Below, piece after piece: positions 8,160 to 48,506 of a stretch of DNA of 64,000 nt. Position numbers and translations under genes: made by a program. This DNA is from a virus, in the IMG/VR virus record IMGVR_UViG_3300049489_000321, positions 32,001-96,000 of that record; one strand, 5' to 3'. The notes beneath the pieces are model-generated. The model was not told the DNA's origin and ran no database searches. It saw only the letters and a program-made list of their open reading frames with translations. The stretch's first letter is position 1, and every line of letters begins with the position of its first letter.

Positions 8160-8351
8160 ATGGCGATTAAAAAGTATAGAGTGAGAGTAAAAGTAGAATT
8201 TACGTTAGATATACCTGTAACTGCGTCTAACGAAGACGACGCAATAGAAGAATTCGAAAAAGTAATACATAAACACGATAACTACGAAATAGTAAACAGA
8301 GCTATTAAAAAAGAGATGGAAATTGTTGATATTAACGAAGCATATGAATAG
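8160..8351 (+). CDS. small hypothetical phage protein
   Basis: AAGGAG RBS; KKYRVRV....V.A..EDDA pattern. Confidence 0.7.
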   Translation: MAIKKYRVRVKVEFTLDIPVTASNEDDAIEEFEKVIHKHDNYEIVNRAIKKEMEIVDINEAYE

Positions 8352-8514
8352 TGAAAACGACAACCAAGAAGCTATAGAGAACTTACTAAGAGCTGCTAAA
8401 ACAGTTGTCAACCAGCACTGTGGATGGTATAAAGAAACGTGTCAGTGCTCTCTATGCGCGCTGCAACGGTGTGTAACAGAATATGAGACTAAAACTGTAC
8501 GAAGTAACGTCTAA
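8344..8514 (+). CDS. small Cys/His protein
   Basis: HC....CQC..C; overlaps neighbours. Confidence 0.5.
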   Translation: MNSENDNQEAIENLLRAAKTVVNQHCGWYKETCQCSLCALQRCVTEYETKTVRSNV

Positions 8515-11844: not shown

Positions 11845-12501
11845 TTATTCTAGAAAAGTGTTAATAGATTCCGCGTTAGCGATAAAAAACTGTCCAGTCA
11901 CTGGGGAAGGAAGACCAAACGGACTGCTCTCAGCGTACATGAAGATCATGATACCTACAAGCGCATTATCGTCGTCAACACACATTCCGCCTGACGAACC
12001 GAAGTACATATCCGCAGTGATTCTGTCTACGTCTTTAAACTTAGTAGCAATAGTACCTTTTGTCACACTTAAGTGAACTTCTCCGTCGTGTCTTTGATGA
12101 GGATATCCGACACACGTTACGTTTTCACCCACAAAGCTGTCAAAAGCTACCGGAGTAACAGGACCAGGGTTTCCTTCTACTTCAAGTAGTAGCAGATCAA
12201 AATCGACGCTTTTTCTTACTACTTTGGCTGGAAATTCTAGCTGATTTACGTTAACTACACTGATTTTACAGTTACCGCCTTCATCCATATGCGCAGCAGT
12301 TAGAACAGCGCTTTTTTTATTACTTAAATCACTGGAAATGATCACGCCGCTTCCTGATCCGGAACCATCGTCGCAATCTACCTTAACCTTAACAGCAGTG
12401 CTTGTTAGTAGTTCAATACGCCCTCGCTGCTCAGGCTTCTCTGGAACGGTGGCAATTACACAACTTGATAACAGTAAACAGACTAATGCCGCAAATTTCA
12501 T
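11845..12501 (-). CDS. trypsin-like serine protease, putative lipoprotein
   Basis: MKF...LLSSC lipobox; GSG, TAAH, DLLLL, GSSGG triad motifs. Confidence 0.85.
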   Translation of the reverse strand: MKFAALVCLLLSSCVIATVPEKPEQRGRIELLTSTAVKVKVDCDDGSGSGSGVIISSDLSNKKSAVLTAAHMDEGGNCKISVVNVNQLEFPAKVVRKSVDFDLLLLEVEGNPGPVTPVAFDSFVGENVTCVGYPHQRHDGEVHLSVTKGTIATKFKDVDRITADMYFGSSGGMCVDDDNALVGIMIFMYAESSPFGLPSPVTGQFFIANAESINTFLE

Positions 12502-12514
12502 ATACCTACTCCTA

Positions 12515-12748
12515 TTAGTTGAATATTGAAACAGATAGCATGGTTCCAATAAACAGTCCCAACAGGTAAGGGAATATCATTTTTCTATTATCAAATATAG
12601 CGGTATAGCCGATGATTGAAGGTAAAGCTATACCCAAAGAAGTGATACCAGACAAAAGTATCTCGTCGTTTTGTACACTTTTTATCCACGCGACATAAAA
12701 AAAGTCGATTACAAATCCGCACAAGAACTGTCTTGCATACCGGGTCAC
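12515..12748 (-). CDS. small membrane protein
   Basis: Three hydrophobic segments. Confidence 0.6.
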   Translation of the reverse strand: MTRYARQFLCGFVIDFFYVAWIKSVQNDEILLSGITSLGIALPSIIGYTAIFDNRKMIFPYLLGLFIGTMLSVSIFN

Positions 12749-13113
12749 TAGTTTATGAGTTTTTCCTTTTTAACTATTGAAGGAATTGAAGTATCTAGTC
12801 CAAAGTCATTGTCGTGACTTGAGTTGCGCTCCGCAAAATCAAAGTCAGGAAAATCAAGTTCCTGTCCGGTGTCGTCAGCGTGTTTTCTGCTTATTATTTC
12901 AGTAGCTTTTAATCCGTACACATCACCAACTTGTAGAATCGTATCAGTAACCCCGTCCAAATTTTGGACCAATTCAAGTACTCTAGAGTAGTCACCAGAC
13001 GCTATTATTTCATTGCCTTGTTTTGTTAAATCCACCGCATATTGGTGCAGTTCCGCTACTCTTTTAAACCACGAAACCAGTAGATCAGCTAACTCTTGGT
13101 CAAATTTATTCAT
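12748..13113 (-). CDS. hypothetical protein
   Basis: AAGGA RBS, ORF in operon. Confidence 0.65.
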   Translation of the reverse strand: MNKFDQELADLLVSWFKRVAELHQYAVDLTKQGNEIIASGDYSRVLELVQNLDGVTDTILQVGDVYGLKATEIISRKHADDTGQELDFPDFDFAERNSSHDNDFGLDTSIPSIVKKEKLIN

Positions 13114-13121
13114 TATTTCCT

Positions 13122-13544
13122 TTAGTTACTAGGTATTTGTATTTTTACAAATATACTATCTTCTGGGTAGAAGATCCCTTCTAGTCTACTATTTACGTGT
13201 GCTTTCTGTCTATTAAGTTGTTTTTCTAGATCAGAAGTAGTACTTAGTGGAGCCATAACCTTGTATAACTCCTTAATATCAGTATATAACAAGTCTAGTT
13301 GATATACACTAGTTTTATACATATTTGTATCGATTGATACAATTAAACTTCTATTTGCATAATCGTTACTAACCACAGTCCCACAGAACCTATTGTTCAT
13401 GTATTTAGTTAGGTTTTTAGGTAAAGAAGATTTTGTTTGTCCTAGTTTTTTTAAAAATATCTTATTAACTTTTTTATACCTATTAAGCTGTACGACAACA
13501 TTATCGCCAGGTACTACGTTTCTTATATGAAAAAATAGTGTCAT
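13122..13544 (-). CDS. hypothetical protein
   Basis: 140-aa ORF. Confidence 0.6.
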   Translation of the reverse strand: MTLFFHIRNVVPGDNVVVQLNRYKKVNKIFLKKLGQTKSSLPKNLTKYMNNRFCGTVVSNDYANRSLIVSIDTNMYKTSVYQLDLLYTDIKELYKVMAPLSTTSDLEKQLNRQKAHVNSRLEGIFYPEDSIFVKIQIPSN

Positions 13545-13587
13545 TTAACTTTTTAAATAACTTACAACAATGATACCACACAAGCAG

Positions 13588-14676
13588 CTAAATACGTATA
13601 AATTTCACTAAGTTCTGAAAACTCTTAATATCTACTGCACCTGCATACGTAATCGCGCTTCTTAACGCACCAGCGTAAGCATCTAATAGTTCTTCAACTG
13701 GCCCTGACGGCTCAAGTTTAATTGTTATACCTTCTGCAACGGTTCCTTTTTTAAGACCGCCCCGCCATTCGTTTTGAACAGCTAAGGAAGACATTCCAGA
13801 ATATATTCTTTTAGTTCTTAGACCGCACTCAGGGTCTACCCACCATTCTGCGGCGCTGTCTGTGCAAGCCGCAAAAATACTACCAGCCATGACTGCAGAA
13901 GCTCCTGCGCCTATGGCTTTACTAAAATCACCCGGTTCTCTAATTCCACCGTCGCTTATAATAGGCATTCCAAGTCGTTTAGCTTCCTCTTTAAACTTCA
14001 GTACAGCTGAAAACTGCTTTTCAGTAGCACCGGCAGTGTTTTTTGTGGAACAGGCAAGCCCTTGTCCTATACCGACTTTGACAGCATCAGCTACGCCGTC
14101 GTAATCATATAAAGCTTCTAAATTATTAACATTTCCTACAACAACTTTAACTTGTTCGGAATATGCTTTGTACGCAGCAGCGTCTTCGTAAACAGCATCT
14201 GACCAGCCGTGTGCAATATCGATAAACAAAATATTTACGCCTCGATCTATGAGGTTTCTACCAATTTTACGCTGCTCCGGTCCGACACCTACAGAAGCGG
14301 CAACCCACGGTGAATCACTCATTACCGACATTCTAGTAACTTCACGATAGTAGTCTTCTTCGTTAGCCCATGCGCGGTGCAATACCCCCATCGCACCTAA
14401 ACTTCGAATCTTCAGGGCGAATTCTGAGTCGATTACAGTGGACATGTTAGCAGCCATTAGAGGAATAGATAATTTAACTCCTCTAATGACTTCAGAACAT
14501 ATGTCGGCATCTAGACGACTTTTAAGTACATTCTTAGCTTGTGCGATGGCTACGTCTTCGAAACCAAGTGACTTATACAACAGTTTTGCGCTTGGATTTA
14601 CGCGCCACCCGCCATCTCCATCTGGAATAATTAAGTCAGATTTTTCTAATTCAATTAGTAAGTTATCTAGTTGCAT
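13588..14676 (-). CDS. IMP dehydrogenase/GMP reductase family, no CBS domains (probably GMP reductase)
   Basis: L.FEDV, AANM.TV, DIAHG, GNV, KVGIGQGLACST, DGGI, YSGMSS, AEG. Confidence 0.9.
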   Translation of the reverse strand: MQLDNLLIELEKSDLIIPDGDGGWRVNPSAKLLYKSLGFEDVAIAQAKNVLKSRLDADICSEVIRGVKLSIPLMAANMSTVIDSEFALKIRSLGAMGVLHRAWANEEDYYREVTRMSVMSDSPWVAASVGVGPEQRKIGRNLIDRGVNILFIDIAHGWSDAVYEDAAAYKAYSEQVKVVVGNVNNLEALYDYDGVADAVKVGIGQGLACSTKNTAGATEKQFSAVLKFKEEAKRLGMPIISDGGIREPGDFSKAIGAGASAVMAGSIFAACTDSAAEWWVDPECGLRTKRIYSGMSSLAVQNEWRGGLKKGTVAEGITIKLEPSGPVEELLDAYAGALRSAITYAGAVDIKSFQNLVKFIRI

Positions 14677-14848
14677 TTAACACTTTCTCAGCTTCTTTAT
14701 TTACAGGAGTTAATCGGTTTTTATGAATTACAATTTTTCTATTATTGAATAGTATCACACAATTATTTTTAGAGTCAGGACCAGAAACCAGATCACACTC
14801 TGTGTGTATTATCTCGGCGTTTACGCTGTTTATTAAACGACGTTTCAC
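14663..14848 (-). CDS. hypothetical protein
   Basis: Short ORF, start uncertain. Confidence 0.4.
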   Translation of the reverse strand: MKRRLINSVNAEIIHTECDLVSGPDSKNNCVILFNNRKIVIHKNRLTPVNKEAEKVLNATR

Positions 14849-14901
14849 TAAGATAATAGCCTTTACTTTTGGTGTTACCGCCCCAAGATATTGTCCTCCT
14901 A

Positions 14902-15261
14902 TTAATTAGTTTTTGGTTTATAATTCAATATAGTTGGAGGTTGAAAATTAGTAGTTCTTAGTTTGTAATCTATCTCAGAGTCGATTGCGTTGTCGCAAAG
15001 TTCTCTAAGCTTAAGTATGCTGTCGTGATTAAGCAAAACCGTGTCCCAATGTCCGCCGTCATTGGTTTTTCGTCTAAACACATATTTTATAGCGTACCAA
15101 ATTCTTTTATACCACGGAAGCCATTGATTTAGTTGTACTTCCATCGCCAGTATTGGTTGATAACCTTCATAATTTTCTTGAAAAAAAAGCACCGTATGAG
15201 CAGGAGACAAACAACTACATGTAACTGCTACGAAATTGTTACCAGTTGGAGATTTGTTCAT
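14902..15261 (-). CDS. hypothetical phage protein
   Basis: C.C...H; W.KRIWYAIKYVF; start inferred from promoter position. Confidence 0.7.
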   Translation of the reverse strand: MNKSPTGNNFVAVTCSCLSPAHTVLFFQENYEGYQPILAMEVQLNQWLPWYKRIWYAIKYVFRRKTNDGGHWDTVLLNHDSILKLRELCDNAIDSEIDYKLRTTNFQPPTILNYKPKTN

Positions 15262-15268
15262 TGCTACT

Positions 15269-15297
15269 AGCATATAACTTTGAAGCACTGCAGTCAA
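15269..15297 (-). promoter_or_regulatory. sigma70-type promoter, near-leaderless
   Basis: TTGACT-17-TATGCT, 7 nt before ATG at 15261. Confidence 0.6.
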
Positions 15298-15336
15298 CCA
15301 CAACGTAGGCGTAACTGTGTATGTATGTCTTAATAC

Positions 15337-15648
15337 ATGGACCTTAACCCTCTGGTAGACTTTTACGATTTACAAAGTAAGAAACATCACAAAATTTGGA
15401 AATTTAGTAATAAATACGGCATATCAGCTGTAAAACAACCTCCTGGCGAAGATGTTCGCGGAACAGACGGAACCACTTGGTCTGTGGCTGTCATTAAATT
15501 TTTTGGACCAGAGATCGATCAATTCGAGGTAGACTATAATAACTCTCTTTGTCGAGAACAAGGTGACTTATTCACGTTCGTACCAGACGAGCAACTCGAC
15601 GCTATCGTACTACTTGCTTCTAGGATGGAATGTCAAGATTTCAGCTAG
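15337..15648 (+). CDS. hypothetical phage protein
   Basis: F.N.YG.S.V...W.VAVI pattern. Confidence 0.65.
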   Translation: MDLNPLVDFYDLQSKKHHKIWKFSNKYGISAVKQPPGEDVRGTDGTTWSVAVIKFFGPEIDQFEVDYNNSLCREQGDLFTFVPDEQLDAIVLLASRMECQDFS

Positions 15649-16685
15649 CCATAGACAACCTCGATCTTCGAGATTGGATTGAGCAATACGCTACCACCCA
15701 GAGCATGGGTGGTAGTGAGTTTACGATTAAAGAATGTCCTAAGTGTTTAAACAATAAAAATAAACTTTATATCAACTCAAGTAAAAAGACATGGTTTTGC
15801 CAGAGGTGCGCTTGGGGTAAGGGCATCGGCGATATCACGATACTCATGGCAGAAGTGTCTGGGCGTAACCTGCACGACGTTAGAGTGGAGCTACTACAGA
15901 CCGTCGTACCTGCTACGTCTTCGGACGATTACCTGAACAGCCTAGGACGCGCTTTTGGCGAAGTTACGTCGTCAGACGACGACGACTTATTAAAAGACCT
16001 TATACTGCCTACAGAGCCTCCTGGTACACAGGACTGGGGATCGTTTGTAGGCAAGCAAGTACTCTCATATGCCAAAAAGCGTGGGCTAGATGAAGAATTG
16101 CTTAAATTTATCTCATGTAGAGTTGCCACGTCTTTGAATAACCGAACTGGACCGTTTTTGGTTTTTCCAGTTATTTTCAACGGAATGACAGTAAGCTGGC
16201 AAGGTCGTCGCATTAATTCAGGCAATCCAAAGTACATCAGTCACACCAACATCGGAGAATGGATATGGCCGTGTTCTAGTAACTACATTGAATCATTGAA
16301 AGAAAAAGGATCTACTGTTTTAGTAGAAGGCGTTTTTGACGCACTAGGCTGTATTTCAGCTGGCGTTGCGGCACAGTGTACATTTGGTAAAAATATTACA
16401 AACAAACAATTGAAATTACTAGTAAGTCAGGGGATTAAAACTGTATACTTAGGATGGGATCCCGGTACTTACCAAGATATCGTGAAAGCAGTAGACATGC
16501 TTTCTCCTATGTTTGACGTAAAAATACTTAACATAGAGCCTGTAGGTGATTCTGATAAAACCGACCCTGGTGACGTACTGACAGATAGATCACTTATACC
16601 GTGGATTACAGACGCCTATGAAAATGCTATGGACGCACACTCACCAGCCTATAACAAGTGGAGATTAACTAAGGAATTTAAATGA
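15630..16685 (+). CDS. DNA primase (Zn finger plus TOPRIM)
   Basis: CPKC...CQRC; WQGR; PKY; LVEGVFDAL; DPGD. Confidence 0.85.
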   Translation: MSRFQLAIDNLDLRDWIEQYATTQSMGGSEFTIKECPKCLNNKNKLYINSSKKTWFCQRCAWGKGIGDITILMAEVSGRNLHDVRVELLQTVVPATSSDDYLNSLGRAFGEVTSSDDDDLLKDLILPTEPPGTQDWGSFVGKQVLSYAKKRGLDEELLKFISCRVATSLNNRTGPFLVFPVIFNGMTVSWQGRRINSGNPKYISHTNIGEWIWPCSSNYIESLKEKGSTVLVEGVFDALGCISAGVAAQCTFGKNITNKQLKLLVSQGIKTVYLGWDPGTYQDIVKAVDMLSPMFDVKILNIEPVGDSDKTDPGDVLTDRSLIPWITDAYENAMDAHSPAYNKWRLTKEFK

Positions 16686-16942
16686 TTTACGTTGTATTTT
16701 ACGCTTATGACAATAGCCACGCACCTTCTGAAGTAGACCTAGATAAGTACACAAAGGTTGGAACGGTAAAGGCAGGTAGTCTTAGCGAGGCCATGCGCAA
16801 GTGGAGAGAAGGAAACTACATCCGTTGTCTAGGCGAACATCGCCCTCTTTTGACGGGCGATTTAGTCAGAGATCAGAACGATAAGTACTTTATCGTATCT
16901 CCGCTTTTTCAGTTTGCTAGCGTAACCCTTACTTCAAGGTAA
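16682..16942 (+). CDS. YodL-like small protein
   Basis: Y.KV.....HRPL.TGD.V resembles the YodL RSLSVSDV motif. Confidence 0.45.
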   Translation: MIYVVFYAYDNSHAPSEVDLDKYTKVGTVKAGSLSEAMRKWREGNYIRCLGEHRPLLTGDLVRDQNDKYFIVSPLFQFASVTLTSR

Positions 16943-16991
16943 TTTGTATATAACTATAAGTATTTGAATTCTTTTGTAGGAAATTATTTAC

Positions 16992-17022
16992 TTGACAAGA
17001 TCCAGTGGACCCCCCTTATAAT
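16992..17022 (+). promoter_or_regulatory. consensus -35/-10 with 19-bp spacer
   Basis: TTGACA(16992)-19-TATAAT(17017); spacer suboptimal. Confidence 0.4.
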
Positions 17023-17089
17023 CCCCCCGGGAGGCAGGTTGGTCAGACCAAAATAAAACACGTTGAATTCACCAATTGATGATTTAAAC

Positions 17090-17229
17090 GCGGCAACGTA
17101 GTTGCCGCATTCCTCCGAAGGAGTTAGCGTTAATTCAATGGATTTAAGCATAGGTCTATATTGAATCTGAGTACCTTATCGCTTATTGACGCCGCCTGCG
17201 GCGGCGAATACCCACCTTCGGTGGGTATT
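17090..17229. repeat. array of four perfect hairpins with C(GNA)G triloops; candidate origin or ncRNA
   Basis: Stems at 17090-17108, 17113-17123, 17190-17206 and 17207-17229. Confidence 0.8.
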
Positions 17230-17236
17230 TTTTATT
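17207..17236 (+). terminator. putative intrinsic terminator
   Basis: AATACCCACC-TTC-GGTGGGTATT followed by T-rich tract. Confidence 0.6.
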
Positions 17237-17288
17237 TACTTTTATATAATAAAAATCATTATTATTAAGTATTTACATATTTTCATCG

Positions 17289-17317
17289 TTGTAATGTGTA
17301 AAAAACTGTTGTATCTT
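17289..17317 (+). promoter_or_regulatory. promoter, near-leaderless
   Basis: TTGTAA-17-TATCTT, 7 nt before ATG 17325; no SD. Confidence 0.45.
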
Positions 17318-17324
17318 TAGCTCC

Positions 17325-17573
17325 ATGAAACCTAGCAAAGACATAAGTAAACCGGCTAGGACTGCTAAATCAATTATAGAACGGTACGGTTTTGACCGTT
17401 TTATGTACCTTTTGAGGGGTTTTGAAAAAGGAGTCTCTACAAAGGACATTTGTAAAACACTAGGCGTTCAACCAACTACTGTTGCGTACTGGAAAAAACA
17501 ACTAGGTAAAAGCGTAACACTTTATATAATAGATCCTGGTGTGGTGTCTGTTATAAACAAGGAATTAAAGTAA
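17325..17573 (+). CDS. helix-turn-helix DNA-binding protein
   Basis: G.STKDICKTLGVQPTTVAYWK. Confidence 0.7.
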   Translation: MKPSKDISKPARTAKSIIERYGFDRFMYLLRGFEKGVSTKDICKTLGVQPTTVAYWKKQLGKSVTLYIIDPGVVSVINKELK

Positions 17574-17577
17574 ATTA

Positions 17578-17606
17578 TTGACTTTTTTGGCAATTAGTGT
17601 GACAAT
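17578..17606 (+). promoter_or_regulatory. putative promoter
   Basis: TTGACT-17-GACAAT, 9 nt before ATG 17616. Confidence 0.45.
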
Positions 17607-17615
17607 TTATCGAGC

Positions 17616-17777
17616 ATGCCAGAGTTTGTTTGTTCGTTTTGCGGCAAAGAACTCTATACATCAAGGTTAACTGTTGTGCTGTGTACTTGTGAAGGTTTTC
17701 TACGCAACGAACACGCTAGACGCGAGTCGCACAATAGACCTGTTCCACGTGGCAAGAAAAAGTCCAGTTACAGATGA
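17616..17777 (+). CDS. small Zn-finger protein (53 aa, not in ORF track)
   Basis: MPEFVCSFCGKELY...CTCEG...; ATGA overlap with 17774. Confidence 0.55.
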   Translation: MPEFVCSFCGKELYTSRLTVVLCTCEGFLRNEHARRESHNRPVPRGKKKSSYR

Positions 17778-18208
17778 TTATTAAAGACAATAGATTGCCT
17801 GATAGATTTTGGAGTAAAGTAAAATTGTATGAACCCACGCAATGTTGGGTTTGGACCGCTAGTTTAAACAATAAGGGTTATGCTAAATTTAGATGGAATG
17901 ATAAAATATCTTTAGGCCATATAGTTTGCTATAAGATATTAGTAGGCGAAATACCTGATGGATTGTGCCTAGATCATGTAAAATCTAGAGGATGTATATT
18001 CCGTTGTTGCGTTAACCCCGCGCATCTAGAACCTGTAACACAAGGTGAAAATTGTGCAAGAGCAAGGAAAACACATTGTAAAAGAGGACATGAATTAGTA
18101 GGAGAAAATCTTCTTTTACAACCAACAGGCAAACGTTGCAAAAAATGTCTTAGTATGTTGAATAGAATGTATTATTTAAAAGGAAAAAATAACAACTATG
18201 AGCTTTAA
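17774..18208 (+). CDS. HNH homing-type endonuclease
   Basis: RFWSKV, CWVW, LDH...CVNPAHLEPVTQGEN, KTHCKRGH; AT-rich. Confidence 0.9.
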   Translation: MIIKDNRLPDRFWSKVKLYEPTQCWVWTASLNNKGYAKFRWNDKISLGHIVCYKILVGEIPDGLCLDHVKSRGCIFRCCVNPAHLEPVTQGENCARARKTHCKRGHELVGENLLLQPTGKRCKKCLSMLNRMYYLKGKNNNYEL

Positions 18209-18926
18209 CCCAAATCGTCTGAACCCTTCCAACGCTAAATTTAAGAAAAGACAAAACGCAAGAGGAGGCGGTGTTTCACATAGCGCTGTAGCTCGTGGCA
18301 AAGGAGTTGGTGATTTTGCTCCAAGCAATGCCCAAGAACCTACGGCACACGGTATTCGTATCCCTTCGTTTTTGTGTGATGAATTCGTTACTTACTACGA
18401 ATGTTTGTTTTCTGGTAACAACACTGGATTTGGGTTAAGCGCCGACAAGAACAAGACGGTGTGTGTTCTAAGCGGCACTGTTTACATTACTACCGCTGCA
18501 ACTGTAAAAACAGAAAATGGTTGGGAAGTAGACAATGACACCAAGACCATGATAAAAGTTAACGCTGGCGCACATGCTAGTTTTCCGGCTGGAACGGCGT
18601 ATAGCCTAGCCACTACAGGCAAACAGAATGTTGAGATGCTAGTTACGACTAGCATTGGTTATGACGATTCTTTTATACCATTAGAAGAATCGATTTCTAA
18701 GCCTGGAAAAATGATTATGAAGGCTCCCGAGGGACCTGTCAAAGCGCGTGTTAACAGTCAAAAAGAAAAAGACGTAGTTGCATCACAGTTTGCTCGTAGA
18801 CAGAGGCAACGTGGTGCCAACGTCGGTAAACGAACTGAGTTGTCTGGAACAAGTTCTGTTCCTAATGTAAACAGTTCAACAGTTATAGGCGTGAATCCAA
18901 TGCCCTTTAGGTTCACCGACGAATAA
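18198..18926 (+). CDS. hypothetical protein with degenerate cupin-like core
   Basis: VLSG.V....G....FPAGT.YSL spacing without metal-binding His. Confidence 0.5.
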   Translation: MSFNPNRLNPSNAKFKKRQNARGGGVSHSAVARGKGVGDFAPSNAQEPTAHGIRIPSFLCDEFVTYYECLFSGNNTGFGLSADKNKTVCVLSGTVYITTAATVKTENGWEVDNDTKTMIKVNAGAHASFPAGTAYSLATTGKQNVEMLVTTSIGYDDSFIPLEESISKPGKMIMKAPEGPVKARVNSQKEKDVVASQFARRQRQRGANVGKRTELSGTSSVPNVNSSTVIGVNPMPFRFTDE

Positions 18927-18933
18927 GGAGTAG

Positions 18934-20526
18934 ATGCCTGAATTAACAAAAGGTTTTGGACCTCCTGCTACTGCTGGACAAAAACAGCGTCGTAGCATGT
19001 TAACAGCTGGTAACACGTCTACTACTGTTAATACCGGTCGCTCAGCTAGTCCAGGCGCTGCTCTGTGTCCTATGTGTGACCACCGTCACGGTCCTGGTAG
19101 TCAGTGTAGCTATCAAAAAGGTATTTTAGATCTATTTGATATTTCAAAAGCTGATCAACCAACTATGCCTGGTAAAAAAGGCGGTGGAGGTATACCTGGT
19201 CACACAGGAGGAAATAAGCACCACGGTCCTGACGGACGGTTCACTACGGCTGGTAAGGCTGTAAGCGTAACTCCTGCCAAGGGAAAACCAGCCGTAAAGG
19301 TTCCTAAACCAGATGAAGTTAACGCTGGCGGCGGATTCAGTGTTCCGAAGCCTAAAGATGACTTTAAAGTACCAAAACCAGGTGAAGTAAGTGCAGGTGG
19401 CGGTTACGAGGTTCCTAAACCAAATACCATGAATGCTGGTGGTGGATTTAAAGTTCCAAAACCAAAGGACGAGACGGTGGGCACTGTAGGTCCGTCTCCA
19501 AAAGCAGAGTCCAAGTTTGACCCAAATAAAACCGGTGCTGCGTCTCCTAAAGCGAAAGACGGTGGTCCGCTAAAAGGCGAAGAAGGCGGCAGCGGCGGCG
19601 TTACAGGCGACGGCGCTAAGACTAAACAAGGCGGCGAAGAAGACGAAGCCTATAACAAGGTGGTCGATGAAAACAAAAACAAGTTCCTTCCACCAGGATC
19701 TGAGAAACCAATAAAGCCAGATGACTATAGCAGAGCACACATTAATTTAACCCAAAAAATGGGAGATCGCGCTCGTTCTGCAGCTAAACAAGCTGGGCAC
19801 AGTACTTCTCAAGTAAACTTGGCTGCGTTTGAAGCAGACCAAGATGCTGGACATGCCGTTGGATTGGCCAAAGAAAGAGGGATTCCCGCACACGAAATAG
19901 AACAACATCTTCCTCAATTAATGGAAGAGGCAAAGCAGGCGCGTATAAATGCTGCTAATCAGCCTCCTACTGTAGAGGGGTTGTTTGACCAAGGTCAACA
20001 ACCCGTTTCTGGAACTATATTTCAATCTCCAACAAAACTAGACGCACATCCTGGTATTCCGCTAGACGGATCAACGCAGACAACTTCTGTCGGTACTCCT
20101 CAAGGAGTTGAGCACAACTTACGAGATCCAAGTAAGATGGGAACAGGAATGAGTTCACCTCCTGCTTCCGCAACGCCTCCAACACCTAACGGACCTCCGA
20201 CTCCAAAAGGTAAGACTCCACCAAAAGGAAAAAAAGGCGGGTCACTTGGTCTTCCTATTGCGCAAATGTATGGTGCTGGTAGTGCTATAGGAAGCGGATT
20301 GGCTGGTAGTCCTGGTGGTGGTGTAGCGCCTACGGCGTCTTTTGCTGCTCAAAGAGCACATCAATTGTTAAATCCTAATTTAAATTCAACTACCGGACCA
20401 GCTTTGGCTAATCCTGGTTCCGGCCCTGGTGGACGTGCTGCGTGGCAAAGTGCCAACGCTTCTCAAAAGCCAATTCATAATAATTTTGGTATTCGTAAAT
20501 CAGTTTTGGATGTTTTGGATGACTAA
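18934..20526 (+). CDS. Pro/Gly-rich disordered protein, putative internal head protein
   Basis: Low complexity, VPKP/AGGG repeats, LTKG/ISKA/IRKS sites. Confidence 0.65.
   Translation: MPELTKGFGPPATAGQKQRRSMLTAGNTSTTVNTGRSASPGAALCPMCDHRHGPGSQCSYQKGILDLFDISKADQPTMPGKKGGGGIPGHTGGNKHHGPDGRFTTAGKAVSVTPAKGKPAVKVPKPDEVNAGGGFSVPKPKDDFKVPKPGEVSAGGGYEVPKPNTMNAGGGFKVPKPKDETVGTVGPSPKAESKFDPNKTGAASPKAKDGGPLKGEEGGSGGVTGDGAKTKQGGEEDEAYNKVVDENKNKFLPPGSEKPIKPDDYSRAHINLTQKMGDRARSAAKQAGHSTSQVNLAAFEADQDAGHAVGLAKERGIPAHEIEQHLPQLMEEAKQARINAANQPPTVEGLFDQGQQPVSGTIFQSPTKLDAHPGIPLDGSTQTTSVGTPQGVEHNLRDPSKMGTGMSSPPASATPPTPNGPPTPKGKTPPKGKKGGSLGLPIAQMYGAGSAIGSGLAGSPGGGVAPTASFAAQRAHQLLNPNLNSTTGPALANPGSGPGGRAAWQSANASQKPIHNNFGIRKSVLDVLDD
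19294..19473 (+). repeat. intragenic peptide repeats (VPKP x5, AGGG[FY] x3)
   Basis: VKVPKPDEVNAGGGFSVPKPKDDFKVPKPGEVSAGGGYEVPKPNTMNAGGGFKVPKP. Confidence 0.85.
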
Positions 20527-21226
20527 CGAACCTATAGATTTATATAAAAGTAAGTCAAATAACAACAGAATTGTAGAAAACGCCATAATAACAGCGTTTG
20601 TTTATGAAGGCATAATTCCTAAATCAGTTCGTTATACTTTGCAAAATACTGAAATTGCTGGTATAGTTAAATCCACATCTTCTGATGTGTATTTTTTTAG
20701 TTACAACAGTGGTATAAATAATTTAGAGTTAAGTTTAGTGGATTCATTTTCGTATCGTAAAGCAACAGAACTTTTTTCAAAAAGCGAAGAAGGATTTGAT
20801 CTAGAATATGCGGAAGAAGAAGAGAAATCTGGTCAATCGGGCGGACAAAATGCTGGTGGGTTACCTGGTACAATTGACGAAGAAAGAAACGTAGCTGCAC
20901 AAAGACGATTAATAACAGAAGAACACCCTGGCGCTGCTGTAGGCATGACTCCTGATAGACCTGATCGCGGTCGTCAGTGGCATCAAGACACTGTTAAGTC
21001 TCTACAAGACCTATCAGAAAACATCAATAAATCTGTAACAAGTTATTTTAATATTGCTTCTCCTACGGAAAAACAATTCATGGTTGAAGTAATGGGGAGA
21101 TCCCCAGATGAGGTTGATTCAGGCACTATAAAGATGACTCCCTTACAAAAAGTTACATATCAAAAGTGGTTGGCTAAATCAGTTTATAAAGACTACACGT
21201 CACTAAATTCGTGGCGAAATCGTTAA
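20519..21226 (+). CDS. putative head-associated protein with many KS sites
   Basis: Probable start MTNEPIDLYKS; eight KS dipeptides. Confidence 0.6.
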   Translation: MTNEPIDLYKSKSNNNRIVENAIITAFVYEGIIPKSVRYTLQNTEIAGIVKSTSSDVYFFSYNSGINNLELSLVDSFSYRKATELFSKSEEGFDLEYAEEEEKSGQSGGQNAGGLPGTIDEERNVAAQRRLITEEHPGAAVGMTPDRPDRGRQWHQDTVKSLQDLSENINKSVTSYFNIASPTEKQFMVEVMGRSPDEVDSGTIKMTPLQKVTYQKWLAKSVYKDYTSLNSWRNR

Positions 21227-22977
21227 TGAAGAAAAAATACGGAAATAGCGTTAATTACGAGAAGATCGTTGAAGAAGTTGCTCGTATGTCTGTTGCTACG
21301 CAACAGATAATGCCTATAGTTAAGGAACAAATAGAAAAAGGATGGAAGCAAATTCCAAATGTTGACGCTAAACGCTCAACAAAGTCTTGGTTTTATGATC
21401 CTCTTTCAGTTCAATTTGCGCTAGGCTATAAAGACCGTAACTTCTCTTTAACTTTTGACATCTTAAAGAGAACAGTACAGCAGCTAGCGCTGCTAAACGC
21501 CATTATCAATCTTCGATGCGCGCAAGTAGCTGCCTTCAGTCAACCGTATAGAAGTACAAGAAGTCTTGGTTTTGTAATTAAACACAAAGATCCAGATCAT
21601 CCTACTACTCGTGCTGAGGTTGAGTTTATTAAGGAATTGGAAGCGTTTGTACTTAACTGCGGAAGATCTGAGAGAAACCCGTATTCTTTAGCAGATAGAG
21701 ACGACTTTGATACTTTTTTGCGTAAAATTGTTCGTGATTCTTTAAGCTATGATCAAATATGTTGTGAGGTAGTTCCTGATAAAATGGGAATTCCTTATGA
21801 ATTCGTAGCAGTAGATGCTTCTACAATACGGTTTTCAGCCGATCCTAGAATACTAGGTGCCAACATGGCTCCTTCACGCAACGGATTTAATCCAATAAAT
21901 CCTAAAATCAACCTAGGACCCGCCACAGCAGATCCATTTACTGGTGCTGTGGAATCAGAAGGAAAGCCAACCAAGTTCGTCCAGGTTGTTCAGGGGCAAA
22001 TAGAGAACGTATACAATGAAGACGAGTTATTTATAGGTATTAGAAATCCTAAAACAGATATCTTAACCGGAGTTTACGGGTACTCAGAAGTAGAACAGCT
22101 AATCAACACGATCACAGGCATGTTGTATGCCGAAGAGTACAATCGAAACTTCTTTAAGCAAGGAAGCTCTCCTCACGGTATTCTAAATTTTAAAGGTGAC
22201 GGCGTAACAGATGAGACTATTGAGGGTTTCCGTAGGTATTGGGCTGCTCACGTAACGGGTGTACAGAACAGTCACCAACTTCCTGTTCTAAACTCAGAGG
22301 GTCTAGAATTTATTGATTTCCACAAGACTAACACGGAGATGGAATTCAATAAATGGATTGAATACAACATTAAGACTATTTGCGGTGTGTTCCTTATAGA
22401 ACCAGAAGAGATCGGCTTCTCGCTATCTGGTGGTGTAAGTCAAACTCCTTTATTTGAGTCTTCTTCTGAATGGAAGCTAAAAGCTAGCCGTGATAGAGGT
22501 TTAAAGCCTCTTCTTAAGTTTGTATCTAAATTAATAAATAAGAACATTATTGACAAGATTGACGATCATTTTGCCTTAGAATTCGTAGGTCTAGATGAAA
22601 TGGACGAACAGTCCAAGCACAATATGATGATCGAACAGATTTCATCATATATGACGCTTAACGAAGCTCGTAGACAACTAGACATGCCTGATATAGAGGG
22701 CGGTGATATTCCGATGAATCCCACATACCTTCAGATGATGAAGATGAAGATGGACGCTGATCAGGCGAAACAACAAATGCAACAGGACCAAGCCGCGCAG
22801 GCACAACAAGCACAAGCACAGCCTCAACCGGGACAGGACCAGGCTCAGGATATGCAGGGACAACAGCCCAACGCCTTGCCAGGAAGCTTCCCAGATCAGC
22901 CGCAGCAACCGCCTAACTACAGTTCTACTTTTGGATTACCTGACTTTCCATTTTTTGACGATAACACGGGAGAATAG
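21226..22977 (+). CDS. portal protein
   Basis: IIN.R..QV..F, FLRKIVRDSL.YDQ, VDASTIR, RNP....GYGYSE.E-like, N.NFF.QG..P.GIL, S.D.GL.PLL, T.NEAR; Q-rich tail. Confidence 0.93.
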   Translation: MKKKYGNSVNYEKIVEEVARMSVATQQIMPIVKEQIEKGWKQIPNVDAKRSTKSWFYDPLSVQFALGYKDRNFSLTFDILKRTVQQLALLNAIINLRCAQVAAFSQPYRSTRSLGFVIKHKDPDHPTTRAEVEFIKELEAFVLNCGRSERNPYSLADRDDFDTFLRKIVRDSLSYDQICCEVVPDKMGIPYEFVAVDASTIRFSADPRILGANMAPSRNGFNPINPKINLGPATADPFTGAVESEGKPTKFVQVVQGQIENVYNEDELFIGIRNPKTDILTGVYGYSEVEQLINTITGMLYAEEYNRNFFKQGSSPHGILNFKGDGVTDETIEGFRRYWAAHVTGVQNSHQLPVLNSEGLEFIDFHKTNTEMEFNKWIEYNIKTICGVFLIEPEEIGFSLSGGVSQTPLFESSSEWKLKASRDRGLKPLLKFVSKLINKNIIDKIDDHFALEFVGLDEMDEQSKHNMMIEQISSYMTLNEARRQLDMPDIEGGDIPMNPTYLQMMKMKMDADQAKQQMQQDQAAQAQQAQAQPQPGQDQAQDMQGQQPNALPGSFPDQPQQPPNYSSTFGLPDFPFFDDNTGE

Positions 22978-22978
22978 T

Positions 22979-23494
22979 ATGAATAAAACTACAGAGATTC
23001 TTGAGGATTTTATAAAATCTTTAAGTACGTCATGTGACGATAGAGATGACGATTCTATACTTGATATAGACAAGGTTCCTGCTGCGGCATCTGAAATAGA
23101 TAAGACCGTAGTTGAGATTGAGGTAGAACCAGACGACGTACATTTGCGTGAAAAAGAAGAAAACGAAGAAGTAGAAAAAGCAATGACCGTTGGTTCTATT
23201 CCTACTCTCGGTAGTGCAACCAGGCGCAGTATATACGCGTCTGCTACCACTCCTGTTACTAGACAGTTTACAAAACTTACTCCACCAGAAGGTAGAGCAC
23301 CTCTTCTACCTGTTCCGTCAATGAAATATGCTCATGATGAATACTCAAGCTGTAATGCACACGGACTTACTTATAAGTCAACCAGTGAATGTCCACATTG
23401 TGCTATGTCTAAATCATACTCGTGTAAGTCGTGTGGTGGTGATTTGGTTAAACAGATAGGTGGCACCACTTCGTGCCAGAAGTGCGGAGCCTAG
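22979..23494 (+). CDS. putative head-associated protein with C-terminal Zn ribbons
   Basis: FIKS, VEKA, MSKS; CxxH/CxxC pairs. Confidence 0.6.
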   Translation: MNKTTEILEDFIKSLSTSCDDRDDDSILDIDKVPAAASEIDKTVVEIEVEPDDVHLREKEENEEVEKAMTVGSIPTLGSATRRSIYASATTPVTRQFTKLTPPEGRAPLLPVPSMKYAHDEYSSCNAHGLTYKSTSECPHCAMSKSYSCKSCGGDLVKQIGGTTSCQKCGA

Positions 23495-23495
23495 T

Positions 23496-23615
23496 ATGTC
23501 AAAAATTACAAAAAATCCTCGTCTTGTGTTAGCTACTCCCGCTAGTAAAGACGTTGTGGTGAAGTCAGTTAAAGATATTAAAAAGAGCATTCCTCTTTAC
23601 ATAAGGATTAAATAA
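23496..23615 (+). CDS. 39-aa basic peptide (not in ORF track)
   Basis: MSKITKNPRLVLATPASKDVVVKSVKDIKKSIPLYIRIK fills the gap between neighbours exactly. Confidence 0.55.
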   Translation: MSKITKNPRLVLATPASKDVVVKSVKDIKKSIPLYIRIK

Positions 23616-23617
23616 TT

Positions 23618-24082
23618 ATGGCCAACTACGGACCAAGAAAACCAATTCACATGCAGGATTCTGAGCTAAGTAAGTCATATAAGAATCCGTCTTTTGAATC
23701 TTTTAGAGACAACGAAATACATACATCCGACTACAAAGAGATGGAAGATCGTCCGTCAACACATGCTATGGCATCTATGCGACGGTATCCAAACGGCGAA
23801 CTAGAGTACCAATGGGCGGTTGCCGTTATTATGGACGCCTTACACAAAGCCGAAAGAGGTATGTTTTTAACTCCTCTAGAAGAGTCCATGATTAGCGTTG
23901 TTTTTCCGGAATACAAGTCTGACGCCGCTGACGCTGCACTAGCGCAGGTTCGTACTAAACTTTCACAGACGGAAAAAGAAAATCTTAAGATGATGGTTGA
24001 AGCACAACTAAAAGAAGAGTTTAATTATAACGCGGGGCGCGGCGGGGGCAACACTCCAGGCCGCACCAGAACACTTCCATAA
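23618..24082 (+). CDS. putative internal head protein
   Basis: N-term MANYGPRKP shared with next gene; LSKS site. Confidence 0.6.
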   Translation: MANYGPRKPIHMQDSELSKSYKNPSFESFRDNEIHTSDYKEMEDRPSTHAMASMRRYPNGELEYQWAVAVIMDALHKAERGMFLTPLEESMISVVFPEYKSDAADAALAQVRTKLSQTEKENLKMMVEAQLKEEFNYNAGRGGGNTPGRTRTLP

Positions 24083-29404: not shown

Positions 29405-29433
29405 TTGACTTCACAATTTACCCAAGGTATTAT
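29405..29433 (+). promoter_or_regulatory. sigma70-type promoter of capsid operon
   Basis: TTGACT-17-TATTAT. Confidence 0.65.
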
Positions 29434-29474
29434 ACATAAATACTGGTTTTTAAGCCAGAATGCGCTCCAACTAG

Positions 29475-29523
29475 AGGGAGGCTAAGTACCTTAACTGGTA
29501 GTTAGACCTCCCTATTTTATTTC
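29475..29523 (+). terminator. terminator-like leader hairpin before protease gene
   Basis: AGGGAGG...CCTCCCT long stem followed by ATTTTATTTC. Confidence 0.45.
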
Positions 29524-29526
29524 TAA

Positions 29527-32760: not shown

Positions 32761-32796
32761 GCCTCCTAGAGCGGCCAACTGCTCTAGGGGGTTTTT
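32761..32796 (+). terminator. intrinsic terminator after MCP
   Basis: GCCTCCTAGAGCGG-CCAA-CTGCTCTAGGGGGT plus T run. Confidence 0.85.
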
Positions 32797-32813
32797 AGTA
32801 TGTTTTTAACGGT

Positions 32814-32841
32814 TTGTATAAACAAACATCCGTGATATAAT
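32814..32841 (+). promoter_or_regulatory. promoter with extended -10
   Basis: TTGTAT-16-(TGA)TATAAT. Confidence 0.55.
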
Positions 32842-32908
32842 GCTAGATACTGTGTAGGTATTTGCTTAATAGGCATTGTCTACTGGTGTGGTTGTTTAGG
32901 AGTTAAGA

Positions 32909-45755: not shown

Positions 45756-45905
45756 ATGCCTACAATTAAGGAAAATATTACGGCTGCTGTTGTTGCGTTA
45801 AATACTGCAAAACGCACACATGGACAAGACAGTAAAGAAGCTAATGAAGCGCGCCTAGTATTGACTAATTTAATAAAACAAGCTAGAGAAGCGACTGAGA
45901 ACTAG
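45756..45905 (+). CDS. 49-aa helical hairpin peptide, family member 1 (not in ORF track)
   Basis: MPTIKENITAAVVALNTAKRTHGQDSKEANEARLVLTNLIKQAREATEN; GGAGG RBS. Confidence 0.75.
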   Translation: MPTIKENITAAVVALNTAKRTHGQDSKEANEARLVLTNLIKQAREATEN

Positions 45906-47264: not shown

Positions 47265-47414
47265 ATGGCACTTAAAGAAGACATACAAGCAGCTACTGCT
47301 GCTCTGAGAGCGGCTAAGCAGGCTCACGGGCACGATAGTCCTGAGGCGGTTGCAGCGAGACTTGCGTTAGCTGCTCTAATTCAACAAGCCAAGGAAATAA
47401 AGAATGAGCAGTAA
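47265..47414 (+). CDS. 49-aa helical hairpin peptide, family member 2
   Basis: MALKEDIQAATAALRAAKQAHGHDSPEAVAARLALAALIQQAKEIKNEQ. Confidence 0.75.
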   Translation: MALKEDIQAATAALRAAKQAHGHDSPEAVAARLALAALIQQAKEIKNEQ

Positions 47415-47649: not shown

Positions 47650-47799
47650 ATGAGCATTCCTAGTAAAGAAGAAGTTGAAGCAGCTGTTGCTGCACTTAGA
47701 TCTGCTAAGCAGGAGCATGGACACGACAGTCAGCAGGCCGCCGCTGCCAGAGCAGCGCTCGCTGCATTATTGCAGAGTGCGTCTGATAGACGCCAATAG
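47650..47799 (+). CDS. 49-aa helical hairpin peptide, family member 3 (not in ORF track)
   Basis: MSIPSKEEVEAAVAALRSAKQEHGHDSQQAAAARAALAALLQSASDRRQ; GGAG upstream. Confidence 0.75.
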   Translation: MSIPSKEEVEAAVAALRSAKQEHGHDSQQAAAARAALAALLQSASDRRQ

Positions 47800-47896: not shown

Positions 47897-47925
47897 TTGA
47901 CAATAGTTGTATATTTTGGTATATT
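47897..47925 (+). promoter_or_regulatory. sigma70-type promoter of tail tube operon
   Basis: TTGACA-17-(TGG)TATATT. Confidence 0.75.
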
Positions 47926-47991
47926 AATGGATAGCAAACACCAATAGGTGGCTTAGACTGGCTTTTAGGCGTTTCTAAGATGCGATTATTT

Positions 47992-48029
47992 AAGGCGATT
48001 TGGATATTCCAAGTCGCTTTTTTGTTTTT
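47992..48029 (+). terminator. terminator inside leader of tail tube gene
   Basis: AAGGCGATTTGGA-TAT-TCCAAGTCGCTTT plus TTTGTTTTT. Confidence 0.7.
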
Positions 48030-48080
48030 AAATGTACGTTGTTTGTTGTTACCAAATAAGTTAAGGAGAAAACAAAGACA

Positions 48081-48506
48081 ATGGCTGCTCAGACATTTAG
48101 TGGCGCTCGCGCCAGAGTACTGATTGATGGCAAAATCATTGGCTTCTGTGGCGGGTTATCCGGTTCAGAAAGCATTGATTATGAACCTGTAGACGTACTA
48201 AATCTATTAGAGGTAAAGGAATTTGTGCCGGTTGCGTATCGCGCGACACTATCAGCGCAGATGTTCCGTATTATTGGCAACTCTATCAAGAAGCAAGGTA
48301 TAATGCCTCGTGGTAACGACTTGGACATCCTAACAGCAGGCGACCTAACTGTCATGGTTGAAGACAAACTAAATCCAGGCCAGATTGCCGCGCAGTTTAC
48401 TGGTGTTAAATGCCAGGAGCATTCTTTCGATATTACTGCCAGAGGACTGGTGTCAGAGAACGTCAATTTCGTGGCGATTAGAGTGAAGGACGAGAGCGAA
48501 CTTTAA
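48081..48506 (+). CDS. tail tube protein
   Basis: 141 aa; SGA...V.IDGK.IG...E...E.VP..Y; AAGGAG RBS; upstream of chaperone and tape measure. Confidence 0.8.
   Translation: MAAQTFSGARARVLIDGKIIGFCGGLSGSESIDYEPVDVLNLLEVKEFVPVAYRATLSAQMFRIIGNSIKKQGIMPRGNDLDILTAGDLTVMVEDKLNPGQIAAQFTGVKCQEHSFDITARGLVSENVNFVAIRVKDESEL

Follow-up and report, generated by a model that had tools for sequence, protein, structure and literature searches.

The stretch of DNA analysed here, called the window throughout, is 64,000 nucleotides long and represents bases 32001-96000 of a 147.5-kb virus record (IMG/VR record IMGVR_UViG_3300049489_000321) whose completeness is estimated at 86%. We focused on one non-coding gap in it, positions 16943-17324 of the window, which carries four short hairpins and lies between two groups of + strand genes. 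Upstream is a short operon consisting of a 103-aa open reading frame (ORF), a primase gene (15630-16685) that matches PHROG 47 DNA primase with an E of 1.9e-24, and an 86-aa ORF (16682-16942) that closes the operon. Downstream, an 82-aa helix-turn-helix (HTH) ORF (17325..17573) is the first gene past a predicted terminator, and it opens a block that continues with an HNH endonuclease (17774-18208) and leads to the portal gene (21211-22977), the latter two assigned with PHROGs. An earlier examination of the letters alone (hereafter the original prediction) had noticed a gap of about 380 bp behind a primase operon, which we measured at 382 bp, and had proposed that its hairpins form a bidirectional replication origin or priming signal or, alternatively, belong to a short RNA.

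Promoter, hairpins and terminator of the gap

A sigma-70-type promoter sequence occupies 16992..17028 on the + strand, with TTGACA (16992) and TATAAT (17017-17022) set 19 nt apart. It is the only 12/12 consensus match to the -35 and -10 boxes in the 147.5-kb genome, and sites matching at least 11/12 positions are not enriched overall (6 in the genome against 7.1 in shuffles). A C6 run on either side (17010-17015 and 17023-17028) clamps the -10 box, a small palindrome (TCCAGTGGA) lies in the spacer, and an A/T-rich stretch directly 5' of the -35 box (+ strand, 16965..16991) is UP-element-like in sequence and may function as one. Just downstream there is a perfect 6+1+6 palindrome on the + strand, TTGGTC-A-GACCAA (17039-17051), at about +10 to +22, followed by a -10-like TAAAAC at about +23 to +28. 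The palindrome is weak as a hairpin (-2.8 kcal/mol, z-score -2.1) and is not significant by itself, given that about 0.09 such palindromes are expected per 382 bp; it could be a 5' stem-loop of an RNA or the operator of a dimeric DNA-binding protein. Because the spacer is 19 nt long and the clamp is rich in C, we suggest that basal activity of the promoter would be weak and would depend on an additional factor or on DNA topology, such as supercoiling.

The sequence around the -10 box is not peculiar to this phage. Its 17-nt core, CCCCCTTATAATCCCCC, is present in 46 contigs of IMG/VR, which group into about 30 sequence families, and in 10 of these 30 families TTGAC[AT] stands 18-21 nt upstream of TATAAT (binomial P of about 1e-18). 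The 46 contigs have no protein in common with the neighbourhood of the gap in our phage. A scan of IMG/VR for TTGACA-N19-TATAATCCCCCC returned a single contig (L140), the spacer of which also ends in CCCCCCT, a feature that the pattern did not demand. In this contig and three more (L143, L157 and L162), the promoter sequence lies 240-420 nt before small genes that are followed by the terminase large subunit; examples of the core sites are L140:1628-1664, L143:88-130 and L157:463-505. We therefore take the 16992 site to be a working promoter of a recurrent kind that heads packaging or virion operons, a view for which the core held in common across phages gives independent support. In L140 and L143, which have the same N19 spacing, a weak hairpin with a T-run follows at about +205 to +250 (about -9 kcal/mol), which is only suggestive. 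The three loci of the N19 type have the promoter alone in common; GNA loops occur in one of nine other leaders, and neither nhmmer nor blastn found a homologue of the leader described below in 1.49 Mb of loci. The core string had no match in a full-text search of the available papers. This long-spacer, C-clamped promoter type looks undescribed, and the core together with a TTGACA 18-21 nt upstream may mark a factor-dependent class of late promoter that can be recognised from sequence, which we regard as the most reusable by-product of the analysis. As a separate observation, the leader of L157, between its C-clamped promoter and an 83-aa ORF ahead of terminase, contains a tight group of three repeats resembling DnaA boxes (TTGATAAC, GTGGATAAC, TTGATAAC) about 120-170 nt past the promoter; they could be an origin or a regulatory site.

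All four hairpins named in the original prediction are present where it had placed them and with the loops it described, as are the promoter boxes, the C-runs, the palindrome and an AT-rich tract downstream. On the + strand, H1 (17090-17108, GCGGCAAC-GTA-GTTGCCGC) has a GC-rich stem of 8 bp and, as RNA, a GUA loop, and H2 (17113-17123, CTCC-GAA-GGAG) has a stem of 4 bp, for which RNA offers AUUCCU-CCGA-AGGAGU as an alternative register. H3 (17190-17206, + strand CGCCGCC-TGC-GGCGGCG) has an all-GC stem of 7 bp, and H4 (17207-17229, + strand AATACCCACC-TTC-GGTGGGTATT) a stem of 10 bp; on the - strand their loops read GCA and GAA. Each of the four has a 3-nt loop, a C-G closing pair and GNA on one strand or the other. 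The whole genome contains 63 perfect triloop hairpins with a stem of at least 6 bp, six of which are C-G-closed with a GNA/TNC loop, and since three of these six are H1, H3 and H4, we regard neither the cluster nor its loop type as a product of chance. Folded as DNA, pairs of hairpins gave z-scores of -4.8 to -7.3 against shuffles on either strand, with H3 and H4 together reaching -19.4 kcal/mol (z-score -7.1). Folding cannot choose the strand, because perfect Watson-Crick stems fold equally well on both.

The array had also been called symmetric, which is true of the polarity of its loops. Its halves are otherwise dissimilar: a comparison of the + strand of the left half with the - strand of the right half yields at best CC[T/A]CCGAAGG, a local match of 10 nt that 40 of 500 shuffles equalled, and the four stems have no sequence in common. 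The + strand layout is tandem without a dyad, a GC-rich hairpin followed by a second hairpin, twice over, with 4 nt between H1 and H2 (0 nt in the RNA fold) and 0 nt between H3 and H4. The apex of H2 on the + strand, CCGAAGG, is the reverse complement of the apex of H4, which presents CCGAAGG on the - strand. Neither the exact H1 sequence nor a degenerate H3/H4 pattern had a match in IMG/VR.

H4 and the U-run behind it (17207..17238, + strand; 10-bp stem, loop UUC, then TTTTTTATTT; -13.8 kcal/mol) form a predicted intrinsic terminator that ranks as the top terminator-like site in 12000-24000, and H3, which adjoins it, would be the upstream half of a tandem-hairpin terminator. A stem-loop with a U-run is found at H4 on the + strand, and not at H1, H2 or H3 alone, nor at any of the four on the - strand, where CGCCGCC comes after H4 and GTTTAAATC after H1, without a T-run. 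H1, having no U-tail, is thus not a terminator. There would be no need for a terminator on the - strand, since the genes here all point rightward on the + strand: the coding strand switches at about 15320, and between 15337 and the window's end all plausible genes lie on the + strand.

As the promoter points rightward into the array and the terminator works on the + strand only, the array is best read as part of a + strand RNA. The simplest reading is a transcript of about 205 nt, from about 17029 to about 17235, comprising a 5' stem-loop, a multi-branch core with H1 and H2, and the H3/H4 terminator. Its ends are deduced from the geometry of promoter and terminator, and the predicted leader or short RNA (17029..17238, + strand, about 205-210 nt) has its presumed start, a G, at about 17029 and extends as far as the U-run behind H4. 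The RNA fold of 17025-17240 has a free energy of -69.5 kcal/mol (z-score -3.5), and none of 200 shuffles was as good. Within it, a multi-branch domain is predicted at 17061..17145 on the + strand, in which a helix of about 17061-17072 with 17129-17140 would enclose H1 and H2; the domain is modelled from the minimum free energy (MFE) structures and from an inverted repeat, I2, with 76% complementarity. The alternative put forward in the original prediction, an RNA of about 200 nt ending at the last hairpin, is therefore kept as regards the polarity of promoter and terminator, and its suggested role as a primer is replaced by that of a terminated leader. At a permissive threshold the best match in Rfam 15 was DUF3800-I, by way of the terminator (23.1 bits against a gathering threshold of 44.2, E 0.8), and ARAGORN found neither a tRNA nor a tmRNA in the region.

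Promoter-terminator units ahead of virion genes

The arrangement in the gap is found more than once in this genome. The pattern TTGAC[AT]-N16-19-TAT[AT][AT]T has exactly three sites in the 147.5 kb, counting both strands (1.66 in shuffles), at 16992, 29405 and 47897. All three are on the + strand, all three are intergenic (intergenic sequence makes up 13% of the genome), and at each an intrinsic terminator is predicted before the next gene (17207-17238, 29475-29513 and 47992-48020). The second unit, U2 (29405..29526, + strand), consists of TTGACT-N17-TATTAT, a short leader and a terminator of -24 kcal/mol (29475-29513); 14 nt past it, the head maturation protease gene starts with its ATG, and the scaffold and major head protein genes follow. 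The third, U3 (47897..48030, + strand), consists of TTGACA-N17-TATATT, a leader of about 60 nt and a terminator with a T-run (47992-48020); behind it come a gene for a virion structural (tube) protein, at 48081, and one for a tail assembly chaperone. The unit at 16992 is the longest of the three and heads the block from the HTH gene to the portal. Beyond the promoter boxes the three units have no motif in common. A further stretch, at 32761-32908 after the major head gene, combines a terminator of -24.6 kcal/mol, an extended -10 promoter (TGATATAAT) and a weaker hairpin with a T-run, ends with a Shine-Dalgarno sequence and the TTG start of the next gene, and is possibly a fourth such unit, though a weaker one.

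What can be read off the genome directly is which elements are present, how they are oriented and that they recur three times before structural operons. Building on this, we consider it somewhat more probable than the contrary that the gap is the regulatory head of the first virion-gene block, namely a promoter-proximal terminated leader that follows the logic of lambda pR'-tR' and its 6S RNA. On this reading, a host-type RNA polymerase with a sigma factor of the sigma-70 family would start at TTGACA-N19-TATAAT (16992-17022), make a structured leader of about 205 nt with H1 and H2 as adjacent stem-loops in its core, and stop at the tandem hairpin H3/H4 and its U-run (17190-17238), a terminator that would also end transcripts of the primase operon. 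The HTH and HNH genes and those up to the portal would be reached only if a phage function overrides termination, and meanwhile the short RNA would accumulate, as with lambda 6S RNA and the StxS RNA of Shiga phages. We infer the firing of the promoter, the RNA end at H4 and regulated read-through with its agent from the arrangement of these elements. For U2 the point is sharper: the 14 nt between terminator and ATG leave no room for another promoter, so that the protease gene there would be expressible only by read-through.

In lambda, the constitutive promoter pR' is followed by termination about 200 nt further on, which yields the 6S RNA, and the Q protein allows read-through; in Stx phages the corresponding distance is 258 nt, and the by-product RNA of the late leader, StxS, can itself regulate (PMC7547250). 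The gap resembles this system in having a predicted sigma-70 promoter before virion genes with an intrinsic terminator about 200-260 nt on, and, as we read it, in making a short structured RNA by default while the downstream genes need read-through. Its leader of about 205 nt would be in the range of lambda 6S RNA and of the 258 nt of PR'-tR' in Stx phages (PMC7547250). A sigma-70 promoter with an intrinsic terminator within about 200-260 nt, before late genes, is what we find at 16992, and the order of promoter, terminator and late gene is found again at 29405 and 47897. Unlike lambda, the phage has three such units rather than one, in a genome of more than 147 kb with SPO1-like structural genes, and it differs further in its 19-nt spacer, its C-run clamp, its tandem-hairpin terminator and the lack of a detected Q-family gene. 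As regards the Q-binding element and the sigma-dependent, promoter-proximal pause site of the lambda type, the sequences of note near the promoter at 16992 are the spacer palindrome and the -10-like TAAAAC mentioned above.

Other solutions to the same problem are known. The gp39 protein of Thermus phage P23-45 makes the host RNA polymerase ignore terminators consisting of a hairpin and a U-tract, needs no site in the RNA for this, and helps the middle and late genes of a lytic phage to be expressed past intrinsic terminators (PMC3351154). A factor of this kind would fit our phage, because the three leaders have no common motif and gp39 needs no RNA site. The systems differ in that gp39 has no known relatives, and P23-45 uses extended -10 promoters that do not have terminators right behind them (PMC3351154).

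Several points weigh against this interpretation. No Q-type antiterminator was found above threshold in the 86%-complete record: PF06530 had no match, nor did PF06323, the control for which was also silent. The spacer of 19 nt is poor for sigma-70, and an independent promoter could lie in the 90-nt AT tract behind the terminator, which would make read-through unnecessary at this gap. Once the terminator is removed, the body of the leader folds only weakly better than shuffles (z-score -1.9), and in a sliding-window MFE scan the region ranked 24th of 2948 windows, so that the leader is structured yet not unique. None of the sequencing runs listed with the region is an RNA run. The RNA reading also does not account for the C(GNA)G bias of all four loops, and terminators elsewhere in the genome have other loops. 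PF03589 had one match, which at 12.9 bits stayed below the cut-off of 26.7 and fell in a 63-aa ORF at 8323-8514; the protein is rich in Cys (CGW...CQCSLC...C) and is a weak candidate for a Q-like factor.

If the terminated-leader reading is right, a large uncultured phage gates each virion block by a host-type promoter with a terminator behind it, a logic that has so far been worked out mainly at the single late promoter of lambdoid phages. Three copies without a recognisable Q would then imply an unknown antitermination factor and three abundant by-product RNAs, which are possible regulators.

Alternative explanations

The leader may instead be the product of a free-standing gene for a small regulatory RNA (sRNA), in which case the RNA of about 205 nt would act in trans, there would be no read-through, and the virion genes would be served by a downstream promoter in the AT tract. 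We think this unlikely, even if it is the best placed of the alternatives. The evidence from promoter and terminator is the same for both readings, and the 90 nt of AT-rich sequence before the next ATG do contain TTTACT-N19-TATTAT at 17235. The two ideas also overlap, in that a terminated late leader can be a genuine sRNA, StxS being an example (PMC7547250). Against a separate sRNA gene, all three units lie directly before structural operons, and the RNA has no Rfam match, no homologue in the 1.49 Mb of loci and no known target. The lack of room for another promoter in U2 favours a role in cis for the class as a whole.

Somewhat less probable still is ordinary punctuation, whereby H3 and H4 merely end the primase operon, H1 and H2 are incidental or stabilise its 3' untranslated region (UTR), and the promoter-like site is weak or silent. 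The primase operon does need a terminator and H4 is a canonical one; moreover, the N19 spacing is suboptimal, sigma-70 sites are no more frequent than in the shuffles, as noted above, and a different promoter motif precedes the primase operon. On the other hand, the long-spacer core with TTGACA recurs in about 10 unrelated phage families, the order of promoter and then terminator occurs three times in the genome, and it would be a great coincidence for a structured 3' UTR of 250 nt to contain the one perfect -35/-10 pair of the genome. The early promoter motif of the phage, TAAYTYTGTG-N5-6-GTCYTA, was considered as a promoter for the HTH gene and ruled out, as the sequence upstream of 17325 does not fit its spacing.

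About as improbable as punctuation, in our estimation, is a replication origin or priming site, in which the promoter would open an AT-rich unwinding element and the GNA mini-hairpins would mark primase entry or start sites on both strands. The unwinding element would be the AT-rich tract between the terminator and the HTH ATG (17227..17324, + strand; about 87% A+T over 80 bp). No other window of 60 or 80 bp in the genome is as rich in A+T as its first part, 17227-17306, and the tract is the second least stable 100-bp window. A promoter followed by a very AT-rich, easily melted tract near replication genes is the layout of the T7 primary origin and of T4 oriF and oriG, and here the primase gene ends 260 bp upstream of the gap; the phage differs from T7 and T4 in that a strong terminator separates promoter and tract, which also makes a poor fit to an R-loop primer. 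The loops, too, show a non-random preference for C(GNA)G on one or the other strand, and DNA hairpins with such loops have an unusual stability and are found at G4-type priming sites, in the ssiA hairpin of RSF1010 and in promoters of N4 (PMC13037366, PMC4496689).

The origin test based on repeated initiator-binding sites gave the AT-rich element but no such repeats: no iterons and no tandem or direct repeat families were found in the region, and the flanking 1.5 kb in each direction contain no DnaA box, even when one mismatch is allowed. GC skew, proposed with the original prediction as a check, places the region at the edge of a broad cumulative minimum, flat over 14.5-17.5 kb, whereas the global minimum itself, at 15443, sits about 1.5 kb upstream at the switch of coding strand near 15320. 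This switch explains the minimum without an origin. Just one 100-bp window of the genome has a lower stability than the AT tract; situated about 9.3 kb before the window (C1:22666-22765), where - strand genes leave a gap of 298 bp, it is itself a candidate unwinding or promoter region.

The comparison with plasmid RSF1010 is instructive in both directions. The ssiA and ssiB sites of its oriV are two highly similar inverted repeats of 40 nt that are read by the RepB' primase (PMC8567376). As in RSF1010, hairpins lie on opposite strands beside the element's own primase, and the apex heptamer CCGAAGG of ssiA is seen in H2 (+) and H4 (-) (PMC13037366). Unlike ssiA and ssiB, the two halves of the array are not inverted repeats of each other and are unrelated, as the shuffles showed (PMC8567376). 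RepB' is a primase of the archaeo-eukaryotic type, whereas that of the phage is of the Toprim/DnaG type with a four-Cys zinc finger, and the phage region has neither iterons nor an initiator gene. A likeness to the promoters of the N4 virion RNA polymerase is also evident, as these are hairpins with a short stem, a 3-nt loop, a C-G closing pair and a loop that begins with G and ends with A; they lie ahead of early genes and depend on the virion polymerase of about 3500 aa as well as on conserved bases in the stem (PMC4496689). In our phage the four stems differ in sequence and lie between a host-type promoter and a terminator. No polymerase of the giant N4 type was seen, the largest ORF of the 147.5-kb record being 942 aa, and PF00940, a family of RNA polymerases like that of T7, had no match genome-wide, with a control that was also silent. 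Lacking iterons, DnaA boxes, dyad similarity and an N4-type polymerase, the gap gives little support to the bidirectional origin or priming signal, acting as single-stranded DNA or as a cruciform, that the original prediction had favoured. For annotation, this is a caution that hairpins with GNA loops beside a primase gene need not be an origin.

A combination of functions, at a phage origin of a new kind, has a slim chance of being right. Here, transcription from the C-clamped promoter would open the AT tract, and extruded C(GNA)G mini-hairpins would serve as strand-specific signals for entry or start of the Toprim primase; if true, this would be a DnaG-type analogue of plasmid ssiA/ssiB in a large double-stranded DNA phage. 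Apart from unwinding, the AT tract could act as an A/U-rich untranslated leader or translation enhancer, or hold a further promoter. The ATG at 17325 has no Shine-Dalgarno sequence upstream, and many other genes of the genome have one.

Lastly, a packaging signal (cos or pac), to which the small HTH protein would bind and at which the HNH protein would assist in cutting, with the hairpins or palindromes as sites, seems very improbable: the genes for these two proteins and for the portal do lie immediately downstream, and the same promoter core precedes terminase genes in other phages, but neither PF03237 nor PF17289 detects a terminase large subunit in the record, and in a comparison with assembled contigs no pile-up of read ends was seen at the gap.

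Neighbouring proteins, relatives and the ends of the record

The primase that precedes the gap is of the Toprim/zinc-finger type, and its homologues carry Toprim_2 (PF13155) and the invariant Cys36/39/57/60. The 82-aa protein encoded behind the gap matches HTH_23 with 23.1 bits, slightly below the cut-off, and its structural neighbours in the Atlas are small HTH proteins (TM 0.83-0.84); no sequence homologues of it were found. Searched for across the genome, the Sigma70_r2 family had no match above threshold.

Relatives of the phage are distant. The best comparators among the relatives of its primase have 40-54% identity, and the closest is on a 29.5-kb contig that also carries the sole relative of a 530-aa protein of the phage. 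An alignment search with the primase against IMG/VR, metagenomes and GTDB genomes gave matches that, among those listed, were all at about 40% identity or less and mostly below 31%, and primases of GenBank phages reach at most 27% identity. IMG/VR searches with the primase, the 530-aa protein and P0013 returned no relatives, and blastn against GenBank phages found no match to the region or to the promoter alone. Identical fragments of the stretch occur in freshwater and wetland sequencing runs, and the source is apparently freshwater sediment; four other runs contain short fragments only, with zero differences inside the element.

Two further observations concern the record at large. Both of its ends (C1:1-100 and 147431-147530, outside the window) lie in a repeat of the GCTGCTGAT type, a trinucleotide-type repeat of GCT/GAT/TAT, and since the two ends share it, they probably reflect an assembly break inside a repetitive gene rather than a physical end. 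Within the window, three paralogous ORFs of 49 aa (45756-45905, 47265-47414 and 47650-47799) are scattered among the tail genes; they have a common core, AL(R/N)(A/S/T)AK...HG(H/Q)DS...A(A/E)AR.AL, and two of them flank a 58-aa ORF.

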